Shown here piece by piece: positions 58,964-64,000 of a DNA stretch of 64,000 bases. The position numbers and the translations under genes were made by a program. Source of the stretch: Escherichia coli (lineage in GTDB: Bacteria; Pseudomonadota; Gammaproteobacteria; Enterobacterales; Enterobacteriaceae); NCBI RefSeq assembly GCF_022846255.1, contig NZ_AP025682.1, one strand, 5' to 3'. Numbering within the stretch: position 1 is the stretch's first letter; every line of letters starts with the position of its first letter. The notes under the pieces were generated by a model. It was not told the DNA's origin and did not search any database. It worked only from the letters and a program-made list of their open reading frames with translations.

Positions 58964-59023
58964 GGAAATGATTAATTCATAATAAATATGAATTAATACA
59001 AAATTTCTTATTAATGTTAAGAA

Positions 59024-59056
59024 GGCACGTTATTTGATGAATGTAACGTGCTTTTT
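59024..59056 (+). terminator. Putative rho-independent terminator after selB (GCACGTTA-N11-TAACGTGC then TTTTT)
   Basis: Perfect 8-bp inverted repeat followed by a T-run, about 60 nt after the selB stop. Confidence 0.5.
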
Positions 59057-59153
59057 ATTAAAAATATTTTAATAAACGGTAATGTTGATCATATTTTCAA
59101 ATGAAAATCCTCAGTAAGCTGCCCGCCCTTTTTTACACTTTCAGGAGTGTGTT

Positions 59154-60305
59154 ATGGCAGCTTCAACCTTTTTTATTCCTTCCGTGAATGTTATTGGTGC
59201 TGATTCATTGAATGATGCAATGAATATGATGGCAGATTATGGATTTACCCGTACCTTAATTGTCACCGACAACATGTTAACGAAATTGGGTATGGCGGGT
59301 GATGTGCAAAAAGCACTGGAAGAACGCAATATTTTTAGCGTTATTTATGATGGCACCCAACCTAACCCCACCACGGAAAACGTCGCTGCAGGTTTGAAAT
59401 TACTTAAAGAAAATAATTGCGATAGCGTGATTTCCTTAGGCGGTGGTTCTCCACACGACTGCGCAAAAGGTATTGCGCTGGTTGCAGCCAACGGCGGTGA
59501 CATCCGCGATTATGAAGGCGTTGACCGCTCTGCAAAACCGCAGCTGCCGATGATCGCCATCAACACCACGGCGGGTACGGCCTCTGAAATGACTCGTTTC
59601 TGCATCATCACTGACGAAGCGCGTCACATCAAAATGGCGATTGTGGATAAACATGTAACTCCGCTGCTTTCTGTCAATGACTCCTCTCTGATGATCGGTA
59701 TGCCGAAGTCACTGACCGCCGCAACGGGTATGGATGCCTTAACGTACGCTATCGAAGCGTATGTTTCTATTGCCGCCACGCCGATCACTGACGCTTGTGC
59801 ACTGAAAGCCGTGACCATGATTGCCGAAAACCTGCCGTTAGCCGTTGAAGATGGCAGCAATGCTAAAGCGCGTGAAGCAATGGCTTATGCCCAGTTCCTC
59901 GCCGGTATGGCGTTCAATAATGCTTCTCTGGGTTATGTTCATGCGATGGCGCACCAGCTGGGCGGTTTCTACAACCTGCCACACGGTGTATGTAACGCCG
60001 TTTTGCTGCCGCATGTTCAGGTATTCAACAGCAAAGTCGCCGCTGCACGTCTGCGTGATTGTGCCGCTGCAATGGGCGTGAACGTGACAGGTAAAAACGA
60101 CGCGGAAGGTGCTGAAGCCTGCATTAACGCCATCCGTGAACTGGCGAAGAAAGTGGATATCCCGGCAGGCCTACGCGACCTGAACGTGAAAGAAGAAGAT
60201 TTCGCGGTTCTGGCGACTAATGCCCTGAAAGATGCCTGCGGCTTTACTAACCCGATCCAGGCAACTCACGAAGAAATTGTGGCGATTTATCGCGCAGCGA
60301 TGTAA
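59154..60305 (+). CDS. yiaY: Iron-containing alcohol dehydrogenase YiaY
   Basis: 383-aa [54 protein letters not shown]... Confidence 0.9.
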
Positions 60306-60320
60306 TCATCATTTCCACAA

Positions 60321-60347
60321 CGGCTGGCGAGTTGTCAGCCGCTTTTT
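60321..60347 (+). terminator. Putative rho-independent terminator after yiaY (CGGCTG-N10-CAGCCG then CTTTTT)
   Basis: GC-rich inverted repeat plus T-run starting 16 nt after the yiaY stop. Confidence 0.5.
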
Positions 60348-60350
60348 CAA

Positions 60351-60429
60351 CTATCTCAAAACTTGCTTTTTTTGAGATAGTTTCTCTTTCCTGCTATACA
60401 CTATCTCAATATTGCGCTTTTTTGAGATA
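60351..60429. promoter_or_regulatory. Two related palindromes (CTATCTCAAAA-N7-TTTTGAGATAG and TATCTCAA-N12-TTGAGATA) 50 bp apart, immediately upstream of the Fic gene
   Basis: Palindromes at 60351-60379 (11-bp perfect arms) and 60402-60429 (8-bp perfect arms); the second ends 5 nt before the Fic ATG; operator role is inferred. Confidence 0.4.
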
Positions 60430-60434
60430 AGCAC

Positions 60435-61730
60435 ATGGCTATCAAATCACCTCCCGGACTTATTCCTTTATCACACTTATCGGGTGAGGAACTCCTGGCC
60501 CACCTGCGCTTTAACCGGGTTACCGATGAAAAAGGACGTTATCTGCCTTTTGATGAGTTGCAGTACCGCATCAAAAAAGGAGAAAACGTCGATGTGGCGT
60601 GGACGCTTACCCGTCTGGCGCGCAACGCGGCGATCCAACGAATTAATTATTGCAATGAAGCGGGTGAACAGGCCGGATTCAACATTACCCCGGTGATTGC
60701 AGAAGCGTGCGAGCTTGTCGACAAACGTGCTACCGCGCTGGCGCTGAAAGATCAGACTGAACGGTTACGCGGGGCCGGAGCCGAGTTAAGCCAGTTACGC
60801 CTGGAAGAGCCGATCACCAGCTCCCAGCTGGAAGGTGCGAATACTACAACGCTGGTGGCGAGAAAAATGCTGGAAACAGGGCGGTCGCCACGCACTGAAG
60901 ACGAGCATATGATTGCGGGAAATGCCCGGCTGATGGCGGAAATTCCGCACTTACTCGCAGAACCGCTGACACCTGCGCTTATTCGCCAGTTACATGCCAT
61001 TGGTATGGGTGGAATCAATGACGCGAAATATCGTCCGGGAGAATTTCGTGAAACAGATGATGTTGTGATCGCCGACTATGATGGCAATATAGTGCATCAA
61101 CCGCCCGCTGCGGCATTGTTACCGGAACGGCTGGAAAAAGTTTGCCAGTGGTTAAACAGCCATGAAGGGTATATTCATCCGTTGGTCCGTGCCTGCATTC
61201 TGCATTTTATGCTGGCCCATGAACATCCGTTTCGGGATGGCAACGGGCGCACCAGTCGGGCGCTGTTTTACTGGTATATGCTGAAATCGGGCTACGATGT
61301 CTTTAAATATATTTCCATCAGCCGTTTGCTTCATGCTGCACCGGTCAAATATGCCGCCAGCTACCAGTACACTGAATCAGATGGTATGGATCTGACTTAT
61401 TTCCTTGAATATCAGGCGGGTGTCATTAAACGTGCTCTGCAAAACTGGCAGCAGCATATCGATGAAATTACACAACGAAGCGCAAAACTCGATAGTGTGC
61501 TGTTTAGCTCTGGTGTGCTTAAACGCCTGAATCCGCGCCAGGTAACGCTCCTGAATGTGATGCTCGCCAATCCGGGGAAAGAGTACACAGTTGCTGAAAT
61601 TAGCGCGAGCCTGGGCGTCTCTGATAATACGGCTCGAGCTGATTTACGGACAATTGTTAAAGAAGGATTCGCGCAAGAGAAAAGAATTAATAACCAGCAA
61701 GCAGTGTACGTCGCACACTACCCGCTGTAG
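60435..61730 (+). CDS. Fic-domain protein (Fic core [14 protein letters not shown], upstream inhibitory-type motif SSQLEG, C-terminal winged-HTH-like region)
   Basis: 431-aa ORF; canonical HxFx(D/E)GNGRxxR Fic motif; a [S/T]xxxE[G/N] segment (TSSQLEGAN) N-terminal to it; C-terminal [36 protein letters not shown] looks like a wHTH. Confidence 0.8.
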
Positions 61731-61837
61731 CTTTTGCCCGTAAATTCGTGATAGCCGTCGTAAAGCTGTTACCGGCTGGCGAAGATTTCGCCAGTCACGT
61801 CTACCCTTGTTATACCTCACACCGCAAGGAGACGATC

Positions 61838-63376
61838 ATGACCAATAATCCCCCTTCAGCACAGATTAAGCCCGGCGAGTATGGTTTCCCCCTCAAATTA
61901 AAAGCCCGCTACGACAACTTTATCGGTGGCGAATGGGTAGCGCCTGCCGATGGCGAGTATTACCAGAACCTGACGCCGGTGACCGGGCAGCTACTGTGCG
62001 AAGTGGCGTCTTCGGGCAAACGAGACATCGATCTGGCGCTGGATGCTGCGCATAAAGTGAAAGATAAATGGGCGCACACCTCGGTGCAGGATCGCGCGGC
62101 GATTCTGTTTAAGATTGCCGATCGAATGGAACAAAACCTTGAACTTTTAGCGACGGCAGAAACCTGGGATAACGGCAAACCCATTCGCGAAACCAGTGCT
62201 GCCGACGTGCCGCTGGCGATTGATCATTTTCGCTATTTCGCCTCGTGTATTCGGGCGCAGGAAGGTGGGATCAGTGAAGTGGATAGCGAAACCGTGGCCT
62301 ATCATTTCCATGAACCGTTAGGCGTGGTGGGGCAGATTATCCCGTGGAACTTCCCGCTGCTGATGGCGAGCTGGAAAATGGCCCCCGCGCTGGCGGCGGG
62401 CAACTGTGTGGTGCTGAAACCCGCACGTCTTACTCCGCTTTCTGTACTGCTGCTAATGGAAATCGTCGGTGATTTACTGCCGCCAGGGGTGGTGAACGTG
62501 GTCAATGGCGCAGGTGGGGAAATTGGCGAATATCTGGCGACCTCGAAACGCATCTCCAAAGTGGCGTTTACTGGCTCAACGGAAGTGGGCCAACAAATTA
62601 TGCAATACGCCACGCAAAACATTATTCCGGTGACGCTGGAGCTGGGCGGCAAATCGCCAAATATCTTCTTTGCTGATGTGATGGATGAAGAAGATGCCTT
62701 TTTCGATAAAGCGCTGGAAGGCTTTGCACTGTTTGCCTTTAACCAGGGCGAAGTTTGCACCTGTCCAAGCCGTGCTTTAGTGCAGGAGTCTATCTACGAA
62801 CGCTTTATGGAACGCGCTATCCGCCGTGTCGAAAGCATTCGCAGCGGTAACCCGCTCGACAGCGTGACGCAAATGGGCGCGCAGGTTTCTCACGGGCAAC
62901 TGGAAACCATCCTCAACTACATTGATATCGGTAAAAAAGAGGGCGCTGATGTGCTCACCGGCGGGCGACGCAAGCTGCTGGAAGGCGAACTGAAAGACGG
63001 CTACTACCTCGAACCGACGATTCTGTTTGGTCAGAACAATATGCGCGTGTTCCAGGAGGAGATTTTTGGCCCGGTGCTGGCGGTAACCACCTTCAAAACG
63101 ATAGAAGAAGCGCTGGAGCTGGCGAACGATACGCAATATGGCCTGGGCGCGGGCGTCTGGAGCCGCAACGGTAATCTGGCCTATAAGATGGGGCGCGGCA
63201 TTCAGGCTGGGCGCGTGTGGACCAACTGTTATCACGCTTACCCGGCACATGCGGCGTTTGGCGGCTACAAACAATCAGGCATTGGCCGCGAAACCCACAA
63301 AATGATGCTTGAGCATTACCAGCAAACCAAGTGCCTGCTGGTGAGCTACTCGGATAAACCGTTGGGGCTGTTCTGA
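61838..63376 (+). CDS. aldB: Aldehyde dehydrogenase B
   Basis: ORF contains [51 protein letters not shown]...; 512 aa from ATG 61838. Confidence 0.95.
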
Positions 63377-63387
63377 TGTGAAAGGCT

Positions 63388-63407
63388 GCCCGGCGTGTAT
63401 TGCCGGG
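63388..63407. terminator. Hairpin GCCCGGC-N6-GCCGGGC between convergent aldB and the epimerase gene
   Basis: GC-rich inverted repeat in the 46-bp convergent gap; possible bidirectional terminator, inferred. Confidence 0.4.
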
Positions 63408-63422
63408 CACTATCAGGTATGG

Positions 63423-64000
63423 CTACTGCCCGTAATAGGCATTGGCCCCATGCTTACGCAGGTAGTGCTTATCCAGCAGTTCGTTTTGCATCGCAGGGAG
63501 CTGTGGCGCAAGCTGGCGCGAGAACAGACCCATATAGGCGCACTCTTCCAGTACCACGGCGTTATGCACCGCATCGGCGGCATTTTTTCCCCAGGCGAAC
63601 GGGCCGTGAGAATGCACCAGTACCGCCGGGATTTGTGCCGGGTTCAACCCACGCTCTTCGAAGGTTTTAATGATCACTTTGCCGGTCTGGTATTCATACT
63701 CGCCGTTGATCTCTTCTGCGGTCATCAGGCGCGTGCAGGGGATGGCTCCGTAAAAATAATCGGCGTGAGTAGTGCCCCAGGCGGGGAGATCAAGTCCGGC
63801 CTGCGACCAGATGGTGGCGTGGCGCGAGTGGGTATGCACTATGCCGCCAATCTCCGCAAAGCGACGGTAAAGCGCCAGATGCGTTGGCGTGTCGGAAGAG
63901 GGCTTTTTGCTGCCTTCCACCACCTTGCCGCTGGCTATCTCAACCACCACCATATCGTCGGCGGTCATTACCTCATACTCAACGCCGGAAGGCTTAATCA
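63423..64000 (-). CDS. L-ribulose-5-phosphate 4-epimerase (class II aldolase family; SgbE-like), C-terminal part; 5' end beyond window
   Basis: Partial [77 protein letters not shown]...[14 protein letters not shown]; SgbE, AraD and UlaF paralogues cannot be separated without alignment. Confidence 0.7.

Follow-up and report, generated by a model that had tools for sequence, protein, structure and literature searches.

The interval between yiaY and aldB in this Escherichia coli genome raises the question of what its 431-residue protein does, and whether the gene was inserted into a conserved backbone or has long been resident there. The stretch of DNA analyzed (the window) comprised 64,000 nucleotides, and the reading frame was found in it intact and exactly as an earlier note on this DNA had described it. 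The gene, referred to here as fic, is flanked by yiaY and by aldB, the latter immediately adjoining it downstream in the same orientation, with 107 bp between the fic stop codon and the aldB ATG. Its product carries the RefSeq accession WP_000985737.1 (WP_000985752.1 for the O157:H7 counterpart), and a literature search with the RefSeq protein accession returned no paper that mentions it. Since the reading frame is intact and its dN/dS against E. albertii was 0.066 overall (0.079, 0.046, and 0.124 for the three domains), gene decay was ruled out. The features assigned to the locus are collected in Table 1.

Table 1. Features of the fic locus, with positions in the window, strand, and basis of assignment.
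Feature	Position	Strand	Basis or description
fic-like gene, 431 aa	60435..61730	+	ATG start; RefSeq "Fic family protein"
Subfamily-specific N-terminal domain, aa 1-100	60435..60734	+	Three helices, beta-hairpin, further helix
Inhibitory-helix motif S129-S-Q-L-E133-G134	60819..60836	+	Class II alpha-inh; fits [S/T]xxxE[G/N]
Fic core, Pfam PF02661	60963..61277	+	aa 177-281, E 1.7e-19; contains catalytic motif at 61224-61259
C-terminal winged helix-turn-helix, aa 362-428	61518..61718	+	AlphaFold2 secondary structure, weak Pfam HTH matches, profile alignment
Putative distal operator box O1	60349..60382	.	AACTATCTCAAAA-N8-TTTTGAGATAGTT, perfect 13-bp dyad, core CTATCTCAA-N12-TTGAGATAG; inverted-repeat search
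Putative sigma-70 promoter	60372..60400	+	-35 TTGAGA 60372-60377, 17-nt spacer, extended -10 TGcTATACA 60392-60400; read by hand
Putative proximal operator box O2	60401..60430	.	CTATCTCAA-N12-TTGAGATAA; ends 4 nt before ATG
Segment missing in K-12-type E. coli, 1368 bp	60358..61725	.	Type A scar: ...AACTATCTC|TGTAA...

A Pfam HMM search bore out the Fic active-site motif that the earlier note had recognized. Besides the match to the Fic family, the active-site loop was intact and read H264-P-F-R-D-G-N-G-R272-T-S-R275, in agreement with the pattern HxFx(D/E)GNGRxxR. The key residues of this motif were invariant across 52 homologues, and Foldseek assigned a probability of 1.00 to many Fic structures, so that the domain match, the loop, and the fold all place the product in the Fic/Fido superfamily. 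The same note had proposed a class II arrangement, where an inhibitory motif precedes the Fic core, and this reading held. The motif lies 131 residues N-terminal of H264 in the same chain, at the end of a helix that spans residues 114-132 in the AlphaFold2 model, and both S129 and E133 were invariant in the 52 homologues. E133 aligned with the inhibitory-glutamate position of human FICD, which we take to be E234 and which is a glutamate in 6i7j and a glycine in 6zmd, and the family-profile alignment placed it on the inhibitory motif S59ARIE63G of CccR. Because the S129-SQL-E133-G motif aligns with the inhibitory glutamate of both FICD and CccR, the fic product is assigned by alignment as a class II Fic protein. 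In proteins of this class, a scheme reportedly introduced by Engel et al. in 2012, the inhibitory glutamate makes contact with the second Fic-motif arginine and blocks the ATP gamma-phosphate site.

The winged helix-turn-helix (wHTH) tail, also suggested in the earlier note, was recovered in the AlphaFold2 monomer model (pLDDT 89.6, pTM 0.86), where helices at residues 367-378, 386-393, and 397-409 are followed by strands at 413-417 and 423-427. Weak matches to Pfam HTH families (E-values of 0.003-0.1) and a family profile that aligned the region with the C-terminal region of CbFic2 pointed to the same assignment. The order of a Fic core followed by a C-terminal wHTH was found both in the AlphaFold2 model and in Foldseek whole-chain alignments to 3zcn, 8cil, and 7xux, which covered 350-367 columns. 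The probable recognition helix comprises residues 394-404, with S396, N398, T399, and A400 conserved, and the type of recognition helix co-varied with the type of operator in distant homologues. Among wHTH-containing Fic enzymes, dimerization through an N-terminal helix is required for DNA binding or activity.

Preceding the helices ahead of the inhibitory helix, the product carries a further conserved domain of approximately 100 residues, in which Y36, R45, W56, R63, and D96 were invariant. This domain found no match in Pfam or PDB. It marks a widespread subfamily with members in the Enterobacterales, Pseudomonas, marine gamma-proteobacteria, and some archaea, and it is an obvious candidate for receiving the activating signal of class II Fic enzymes. 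It may sense such a signal in the fic product, a role that is pure conjecture.

The kind of protein is already known, since the closest structures are those of SoFic, CbFic2, and CccR and since the PADLOC SoFic model (PDLC03963) matched residues 96-427 along profile positions 30-351 of 361 with an E-value of 1.1e-43. The statement that target and function of such proteins are mostly unknown was hence too strong, as SoFic (AMPylation of EF-Tu), EcSofic (toxicity), CccR (autorepression), and CbFic2 have all been studied; what stands of it concerns the long subfamily with the extra N-terminal domain. The N-terminal domain, the operator pair, and the deletion history described below are new here.

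SoFic of Shewanella oneidensis (SO_4266; 3zcn and 3eqx) was the best structural match, with TM scores of 0.71-0.72, and CbFic2 (8cil) and CccR (7xux) were also among the best Foldseek matches. SoFic shares the Fic core, the N-terminal inhibitory glutamate, and the C-terminal wHTH with the fic product, but the sequence identity between the two is approximately 18-20%. The NCBIfam SoFic equivalog model NF046030 scored 40.3 bits against a cutoff of 550, and the fic product is not a SoFic equivalog. Additionally, SoFic and EcSofic have only a dimerization helix, whereas the N-terminus of the fic product is longer by approximately 65-70 residues, which make up a conserved domain of their own. SoFic binds the 100 bp that precede its own start codon and AMPylates EF-Tu; it is bifunctional, its modification of EF-Tu is reversible, and a dual role in transcription and translation has been proposed for it (bioRxiv 10.64898/2026.07.09.737422). 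In a Glu-to-Gly mutant of SoFic, AMPylation was not simply hyperactivated (bioRxiv 10.64898/2026.07.09.737422), and a model of an auto-inhibited toxin may therefore be too simple. EcSofic, from E. coli H397 and grouped with SoFic, is toxic in E. coli, where its catalytic histidine, its dimer, and its C-terminal domain are all required (PMC12249575). PDB entry 9vjc, which the fic product matched in phmmer with an E-value of 8.6e-8, is probably EcSofic, because H194 of its chain aligns with H264. The fic gene differs from EcSofic-AS1 in having no AS1-like small downstream reading frame: an AS1-like antitoxin of about 47 aa was not found directly downstream, and all reading frames of at least 20 aa that touch the 107-bp spacer overlap fic or aldB.

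CccR of Yersinia pseudotuberculosis is likewise a class II Fic protein with a wHTH (family-profile E-value of 2.7e-16), and its SxxxEG motif aligns residue for residue with that of the fic product. In contrast, CccR is 380 aa long without the N-terminal domain, and it is a T6SS substrate that AMPylates FtsZ, whereas no secretion context was found at the fic locus. CbFic2 of Coxiella burnetii (CBU_0822) was the best profile match among solved structures (E-value of 1.5e-22), with inhibitory motifs aligned as for CccR and with a Fic core and a C-terminal HTH in common. It is a bifunctional AMPylase and de-AMPylase regulated by DNA binding. However, CbFic2 lacks the N-terminal extension and reportedly serves as a host-directed effector that acts on histone H3, and its binding to DNA is said to regulate the enzyme and not the promoter of its own gene. 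Human FICD (HYPE) was the best single-sequence match in PDB (E-value of 2.6e-12), with both the inhibitory glutamate and the catalytic loop aligned, and it provides the precedent for a glutamate-dependent switch between AMPylation and de-AMPylation. It differs from the fic product as a eukaryotic ER membrane protein with a TPR domain, dimerization through the Fic domain, and no wHTH.

Upstream of fic, the box pattern CTATCTCAA-N12-TTGAGATAG occurred twice in the 64-kb window against zero expected occurrences, and both copies were at the fic promoter. The putative -35 element sits within the right arm of O1, and O2 covers the probable transcription start and the ribosome-binding region. The promoter assignment was deduced from sequence by eye; the automatic scan did not call it, as its -10 element ends in A, while a TGCTATA(A/C) or TATACT element was conserved directly 5' of the proximal box in orthologues. 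Two matches of the promoter scan inside the fic reading frame were rejected as chance level. The boxes were also found beside fic orthologues in ten other genera, where they accompany the gene into unrelated genomic contexts. Among 11 other Enterobacterales loci examined, the proximal box lay at -33 to -37 from the ATG in ten and was degenerate in Xenorhabdus, and the distal box lay at -83 to -85 in four (E. albertii, Pseudescherichia, a Salmonella ICE, and Pantoea). Conservation was concentrated in the box arms, at 1.78 bits per position versus 0.68 in the spacer, whose length of 12 nt was fixed while its sequence varied. Homologues at 37-45% identity in Pseudomonas, Glaciecola, and Alcanivorax had two palindromes with the TCTCAA core retained, and more distant homologues had different palindromes together with a different recognition helix.

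The nearest precedent for this arrangement is CccR, which footprints on an inverted repeat near the -35 and -10 elements of its own gene and represses it (PMC9755527). The operator of CccR is a single repeat, AGATAATCAT-N26-ATGATAATCT, whereas the two boxes at fic lie 50 bp apart. Dyad-symmetric boxes that overlap the gene's own putative promoter are what would be expected in sequence from an autorepressor of the CccR type. As the boxes overlap the putative promoter and travel with the orthologues, and given the CccR precedent, sequence and analogy support autorepression of fic through O1 and O2. The suggestion of autoregulation through the wHTH in the earlier note thus gained backing from a pair of conserved palindromes over the putative promoter.

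The distribution of the gene among E. coli revealed a different history from the one first supposed. The absence of fic from K-12 and its variability within the species were borne out: yiaY and aldB adjoin each other in K-12 and HB101, and the gene was present in 1,572 of 5,426 complete E. coli genomes (29%). In contrast, the reading of fic as an accessory insertion had to be abandoned, as sites without the gene retain relics of the cassette. At type A junctions, observed in 3,159 genomes, the left half of the distal box runs directly into TGTAA, with which fic ends. At type B junctions, observed in 575 genomes, the whole distal box is kept and TTATCTC is fused to TGTAA. Additionally, E. albertii carries fic at the same locus with the same synteny, and dS against E. 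albertii was 0.30 for fic and 0.35 for aldB. Because operator relics are fused to the end of fic, and because the E. albertii copy occupies the same locus and shows a dS like that of aldB, the absent state is derived and arose by deletion. By these sequence comparisons, fic is old at the yiaY-aldB locus, and most E. coli, including K-12, lost it by deletion, which makes K-12 the derived rather than the ancestral state and corrects the evolutionary reading. A recent horizontal transfer was also considered and rejected, as the GC content of fic is 50.8% against 50.1% across the window and its dS against E. albertii is that of aldB. The natural alleles with and without the gene, the latter with two types of scar, make isogenic comparisons easy. 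As a separate observation, fic alleles were younger than their flanks (dS of 0.034 versus 0.153).

Considering these results together, we think it reasonably probable that the fic locus is a self-contained, autoregulated cassette that encodes a class II Fic AMP-transferase, probably also a de-AMPylase, of the SoFic/CccR/CbFic2 architecture but of a distinct long subfamily. The gene carries its own putative promoter, with one dyad box over the -35 element and the other between the -10 element and the end of the ribosome-binding site. A dimer would bind these boxes through the C-terminal wHTH and repress its own transcription, keeping a potentially toxic enzyme scarce; this step is suggested by the conservation of the boxes across genera, the CccR footprint, and the promoter binding of SoFic. 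The active site is complete, and on the evidence of motif and homology Glu133 should block productive ATP binding, such that the resting enzyme would be auto-inhibited or act as a de-AMPylase. The inhibition might be relieved by a signal such as phage infection or an altered oligomeric state or DNA binding, and the N-terminal domain may sense this signal. The released enzyme would then AMPylate a conserved cellular protein and stop growth in the manner of abortive infection or of a toxin, for which EF-Tu at switch I (as for SoFic), FtsZ (as for CccR), and GyrB or ParE are candidate targets by analogy. The gene is old at this locus and common to E. albertii, and the deletions by which most E. 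coli lost it left relics of the operator behind. What the product targets, what triggers it, and whether it acts against phages are points that we infer.

Of the other explanations, a stress- or persistence-type toxin module without a phage role is unlikely but survives best. Here, self-inhibition together with autorepression would define the threshold at which growth is reversibly arrested, with a factor of translation or replication being AMPylated and de-AMPylated to this end. Such a module would fit the bifunctional SoFic with its reversible modification of EF-Tu, the AMPylation of GyrB or ParE by class I and II Fic toxins, and the long vertical residence of fic at the yiaY-aldB locus. It would also fit the deletion of a predicted SoFIC in one isolate, E. 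coli NILS69, which left 10 phages unaffected, although this may not be the same gene (PMC12409345). However, the PADLOC SoFic match and the defence, toxin-antitoxin, and mobile neighborhoods of homologues are equally compatible with defence. Only the biological trigger distinguishes this module from the cassette favored above.

Still less probable is that the protein acts mainly as a transcription factor, whose wHTH controls other genes, such as those of the neighboring carbon and aldehyde metabolism, and whose Fic domain, instead of being a toxin, is a regulatory module that senses a ligand or ATP or modifies itself. CccR does alter the expression of other genes, SoFic has its proposed dual role, and fic has been passed on stably by vertical descent, under strong purifying selection and with housekeeping genes on both sides, directly upstream of and in the same orientation as aldB. 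Nevertheless, the region upstream of aldB was identical with and without fic, the box was confined in the window to the promoter of fic itself, and the boxes moved together with the gene into unrelated contexts, as suits autoregulation and not a host regulon. Both the inhibitory glutamate and the catalytic motif were moreover invariant, which implies selection on the enzymatic function.

A secreted effector or interbacterial toxin acting in other cells, like CccR through the T6SS or CbFic2, is very improbable. CbFic2 and CccR, the nearest solved relatives by sequence and profile, are both reported as delivered, but no secretion system, chaperone, immunity protein, or PAAR, VgrG, or Rhs protein was found among the flanking genes here or at the homologous loci examined, and the family is spread over free-living bacteria and even archaea. 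Least credible, and largely refuted, is that the palindromes are intrinsic terminators or generic intergenic repeats beside a decaying relic: a scan listed O1 as terminator-like, with a T-rich tail behind its 13-bp stem, but a GC-rich terminator of yiaY is already present at 60321-60341, O1 contains only three GC pairs, O2 has no upstream gene to terminate, the spacing of both boxes to the fic ATG is preserved in other genera regardless of what precedes them, an Rfam search of 59000-64000 matched no RNA element, and the intact reading frame and dN/dS speak against decay.

For the autoregulated cassette, the genomic context of the homologues bears on a possible role in defence. Their neighborhoods included mobile, toxin-antitoxin, or defence genes, for example a Salmonella ICE, AbiEi_3, ParE, HicAB, and a DUF927 gene, the last of which we take as the marker of a P4-like element. 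The E. coli locus itself is flanked by two housekeeping genes and does not lie in a defence island, and vertical inheritance under purifying selection, as found for fic, is unusual for defence genes. "SoFic" was reportedly described as a single-gene anti-phage system by Millman et al. in 2022, and our literature search brought up no other paper on the mechanism of anti-phage defence by Fic proteins. A bolder combination, which we hold only tentatively, is that the N-terminal domain is a new sensor or adaptor module governing release of the inhibitory glutamate, and that the protein, long resident in the chromosome, regulates a core process (such as translation via EF-Tu) in the E. coli and E. 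albertii lineage and is not the product of a typical mobile defence gene, its gene having been dropped by most modern E. coli through at least two independent deletions. Enzymes of the wHTH-Fic type are only now gaining targets and roles, namely EF-Tu for SoFic, FtsZ for CccR, and anti-phage defence, and the fic locus adds an E. coli member with a clean putative operator pair defined by sequence. Among phage records, only short-form, distant relatives of the protein were found, and among plasmids, 18 of the 584 matching records covered at least 80% of it.

The fic gene encodes a kind of protein that is already known, and RefSeq labels it 'Fic family protein'. A Pfam search of the 431-aa product identified a Fic domain at residues 177-281 (E 1.7e-19) and weak HTH-family matches at residues 361-414. 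The catalytic loop runs from H264 to residue 275, and the segment S129-SQL-E133-G134 matches the inhibitory-helix motif. Among 52 aligned homologues (40-97% identity), S129, E133, H264, D268, G269, N270, G271, R272, and R275 were invariant. When searched against PDB sequences with phmmer, E133 fell on the inhibitory-Glu position of human FICD, which is Glu in 6i7j and Gly in 6zmd. The family profile aligned the same motif with S59ARIE63G of the class II Fic protein CccR, in whose crystal structure the second Arg of the Fic motif is hydrogen-bonded by S59 and E63. An AlphaFold2 model with the 52-sequence alignment as input was confident (pLDDT 89.6, pTM 0.86) and ended in a winged HTH (wHTH) of three helices and two strands at residues 367-427. 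These results confirmed the active-site motif, the N-terminal inhibitory motif, and the wHTH tail that the earlier note had read from the sequence, so that the protein has a Fic fold, a class II arrangement, and a C-terminal wHTH.

Features of the yiaY-aldB region and of the fic protein
Feature	Position	Strand	Source or remark
yiaY	59154-60305		upstream neighbour of fic
yiaY terminator hairpin	60321-60341		terminator scan
Distal box (O1), first 30-nt dyad, perfect 13-bp arms	60349-60382		repeat search
Proximal box (O2), second dyad	60401-60430		repeat search; 50 bp after distal box
Segment missing from type A sites relative to the window	60358-61725		1368 bp
fic, 431 aa	60435-61730	+	ORF listing; between yiaY and aldB
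Imperfect 15-bp hairpin	61695-61727		over last fic codons
Conserved aldB upstream region	61748-61837		kept with and without fic
aldB	annotated ATG 61838		downstream neighbour of fic
sgbE/araD-like epimerase gene	63377-63968	-	directly after aldB
N-terminal domain of fic protein	aa 17-26, 39-45, 52-66, 86-98 (helices); 68-73 + 79-82 (hairpin)		AlphaFold2 model

From the yiaY stop codon to the fic ATG, a span of 129 bp, there were three elements: the yiaY terminator and two putative operators, the distal and proximal boxes. The pattern TATCTCAA-N8-16-TTGAGATA occurred only at these two boxes in the 64-kb window and was absent from 100 shuffles. A plausible extended -10 promoter was read by hand from the sequence: the right arm of the distal box supplies TTGAGA, and TGcTATACA follows after a spacer of 17 nt. 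The promoter scan did not call this promoter because its -10 hexamer ends in A. The proximal box extends from the -10 element and stops 4 nt short of the ATG.

The decisive test for this candidate operator pair was a comparison of upstream regions from orthologues at 43-96% protein identity in 11 other loci (E. albertii, Pseudescherichia, Enterobacteriaceae RIT691, two Salmonella elements, Pantoea, Photorhabdus, Rahnella, Klebsiella, Kosakonia, and Xenorhabdus). In all loci but Xenorhabdus, where it was degenerate, the proximal box lay at positions -33 to -37 relative to the ATG (10 of 11); the distal box was found at -83 to -85 in four. Box spacing was constant at 9+12+9 nt while the spacer sequence varied, and the consensus over 15 boxes was a perfect dyad, CTATCTCAA-N12-TTGAGATAG, with 1.78 bits per position in the arms versus 0.68 in the spacer (82% A+T). 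These orthologues have flanking genes with no relation to yiaY and aldB, so the boxes go with the fic cassette rather than with its neighbours. Two upstream palindromes with a TCTCAA...TTGAGA core also preceded homologues of 37-45% identity in Pseudomonas, Glaciecola, Alcanivorax, Halopseudomonas, and MAGs, and still more distant homologues had two palindromes of a different sequence. The probable recognition helix is S-D-N-T-A-R in Enterobacterales and S-Y-N-T-A in the Pseudomonas group, and where the palindromes differ it is x-Y-x-T-A-R. The helix varies in step with the operators, a coarse correlation whose direction is nonetheless the expected one.

The best structural matches in a Foldseek search against the PDB were wHTH-containing class II Fic enzymes. 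These included SoFic (3zcn and 3eqx; target-normalised TM 0.71-0.72, 18-19% identity), CbFic2 of Coxiella (8cil), Dde_2494 (4rgl), a Mycobacterium marinum Fic (7cb8), and CccR (7xux). The family profile matched CbFic2 across the Fic core and HTH (E 1.5e-22), CccR (E 2.7e-16), and 9vjc (E 1.3e-12); we infer the last to be EcSofic because its H194 aligned with H264. The PADLOC model of SoFic, a single-gene anti-phage system, matched residues 96-427 (E 1.1e-43), and a PHROG of unknown function matched at E 6e-54. The protein scored 40 bits against the NCBIfam SoFic equivalog, below its cutoff of 550 bits, and is therefore a relative of SoFic rather than an orthologue. Defence-annotation tools would probably call the gene SoFic.

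Several of these relatives have been characterized. SoFic has been reported as a standalone Fic-domain defence protein (bioRxiv 10.1101/2022.05.11.491447); in S. oneidensis it AMPylates and de-AMPylates switch I of EF-Tu, requires dimerisation for AMPylation, and binds the 100 bp that precede its start codon (bioRxiv 10.64898/2026.07.09.737422). EcSofic of E. coli H397 is toxic, which requires the catalytic His, dimerisation through helix alpha-1, and the C-terminal domain, and the toxicity is countered by AS1, a 47-aa product encoded downstream (PMC12249575). CccR AMPylates FtsZ and represses its own promoter via AGATAATCAT-N26-ATGATAATCT, a repeat close to both the -35 and the -10 element (PMC9755527). 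DNA binding regulates CbFic2, which is a bifunctional enzyme (PMC10628234).

The locus is best read as an autorepressed, self-inhibited cassette for a Fic AMP-transferase/de-AMPylase. Autorepression via the two boxes is highly probable, given the conservation of the boxes and two experimental precedents, and AMPylation chemistry is likely because the canonical motif is intact. For a toxin-like growth arrest upon activation the balance is even. An anti-phage role is possible but somewhat doubtful, and EF-Tu is an unlikely target. Caveats are that the protein is distant from the validated ones, and that the gene has a housekeeping neighbourhood and vertical inheritance. Additionally, a natural E. 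coli isolate from which a predicted SoFIC was deleted responded no differently to the 10 phages tested (PMC12409345), and the E73G mutant of SoFic is not a hyperactive toxin in any simple sense. New here are the long subfamily, whose N-terminal domain is an orphan, the pair of operator boxes CTATCTCAA-N12-TTGAGATAG, and the deletion scars showing that K-12 lost fic, for none of which was a description found in the literature.

The intact yiaY-fic-aldB arrangement was present in 1,572 of 5,426 complete E. coli genomes, O157:H7 among them, and fic-less sites were of two kinds. Type A, found in 3,159 genomes including K-12 and HB101, has a junction of TTTTTCAACTATCTC with TGTAACCCTTGCCCG, where the left half of the distal box is fused to the last five bases of fic, stop codon included; the operator relic is a 9-nt half box (2750-2770 of the K-12-type locus L001). 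Type B (575 genomes) retains a complete distal box, AACTATCTCAAAATTTGCGATTTTTGAGAGAGTT, with one mutated arm (GAGAGAG; 1450-1500 in loci L087-L089), followed by a junction of TTAGTTATCTC with TGTAATCC. The presence of half or whole operators beside the stop codon of a missing gene indicates deletion; an insertion target would not be expected to carry either. Type A could have arisen from type B via a second deletion between repeated TATCTC sequences.

In E. albertii, fic occupies the same position directly upstream of aldB and has the same boxes. Between the window and E. albertii, nucleotide identity was 92.7% for fic and 92.9% for aldB, with dS of 0.30 and 0.35 and dN/dS of 0.066 and 0.020, respectively, and the G+C content of fic was 50.8% compared to 50.1% for the window. 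This synteny, flank-like divergence, and composition imply that fic is old at the locus and was lost repeatedly. Hence, of the accessory insertion proposed in the earlier note, the accessory status holds and the insertion does not. Within E. coli, fic alleles are much closer than their flanks (dS to O157, locus L002, of 0.034 for fic and 0.153 for aldB at 61838-63376), which suggests that a fic-bearing segment spread recently among lineages by recombination. A 503-aa predicted protein from a Logan assembly (P0099) joins Fic residues 1-167 in frame to the last two-thirds of AldB, which corresponds to a fusion of 60435-60935 to about 62400-63376 of the window (junction GNARLMA/SWKMAP); it is either a third kind of deletion or an assembly artefact.

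The inhibitory Glu lies at position 133, whereas it is E73 in SoFic, E70 in EcSofic, and E63 in CccR. The first ~100 residues were modelled confidently as a separate unit. A profile of this domain matched 285 clusters (E<=0.001) among 1.84 billion representative proteins; all inspected full-length matches were Fic proteins with the domain at the N-terminus, and the short matches look like gene fragments. Its dN/dS between E. coli and E. albertii was 0.079, hence it is under purifying selection. It lies directly before the helices that connect to the inhibitory helix, and from this position one may reasonably guess, though no more than guess, that it serves in dimerisation or senses an activating signal. 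The metagenomic protein P0180 (529 aa) has the domain and the inhibitory motif, while its Fic motif breaks off after HPFG into a tail with a GWWYL motif, WYL-domain-like in look; a frameshift, a chimera, or a genuine domain swap could each account for this.

Neighbourhoods of the orthologues varied among genera. In some, for example Kosakonia, where the flanking genes were read as udp and rmuC, and Rahnella, where the orthologue adjoins a fumarase gene, it forms a single-gene islet between housekeeping genes. Others were in mobile or defence-type settings, including a Salmonella ICE (AcaB, DUF3158, and DUF3577), a second Salmonella element (resolvase, ParA, and primase genes), Klebsiella (a DUF927 gene, taken to mark a P4-like element), Pantoea (AbiEi_3), and Photorhabdus (ParE/Phd and HicAB). 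Xenorhabdus belongs with these: its long-form homologue is followed after ~800 bp by a second, shorter Fic-HTH gene (336 aa; L095, 5206-6216), which has the opposite orientation. Long-form relatives were also plasmid-borne in some cases (Rahnella, Klebsiella, Aeromonas, and Vibrio), and phage records contained only short-form, distant relatives.

The scan scored the hairpin over the last fic codons as terminator-like for the minus strand. In the plus orientation just a short T run (TAGCTTTTG) comes after it, and the hairpin may act as a weak terminator for fic, upstream of the aldB promoter. The mechanical aldB ORF begins at GTG 61748, 90 nt upstream of the annotated start. Downstream of aldB the window continues directly into the sgbE/araD-like gene; stretches of L003 (3033-3774) and L091 (10278-11019) bear on the same spot. 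A yiaW-yiaV-yiaU-yiaT block separates the two genes in K-12/HB101 and O157:H7 and is absent from the window and E. albertii, and a type I restriction endonuclease gene lies right after aldB in a fic-less O169:H41 strain; this differing content marks a second variable region downstream of aldB.
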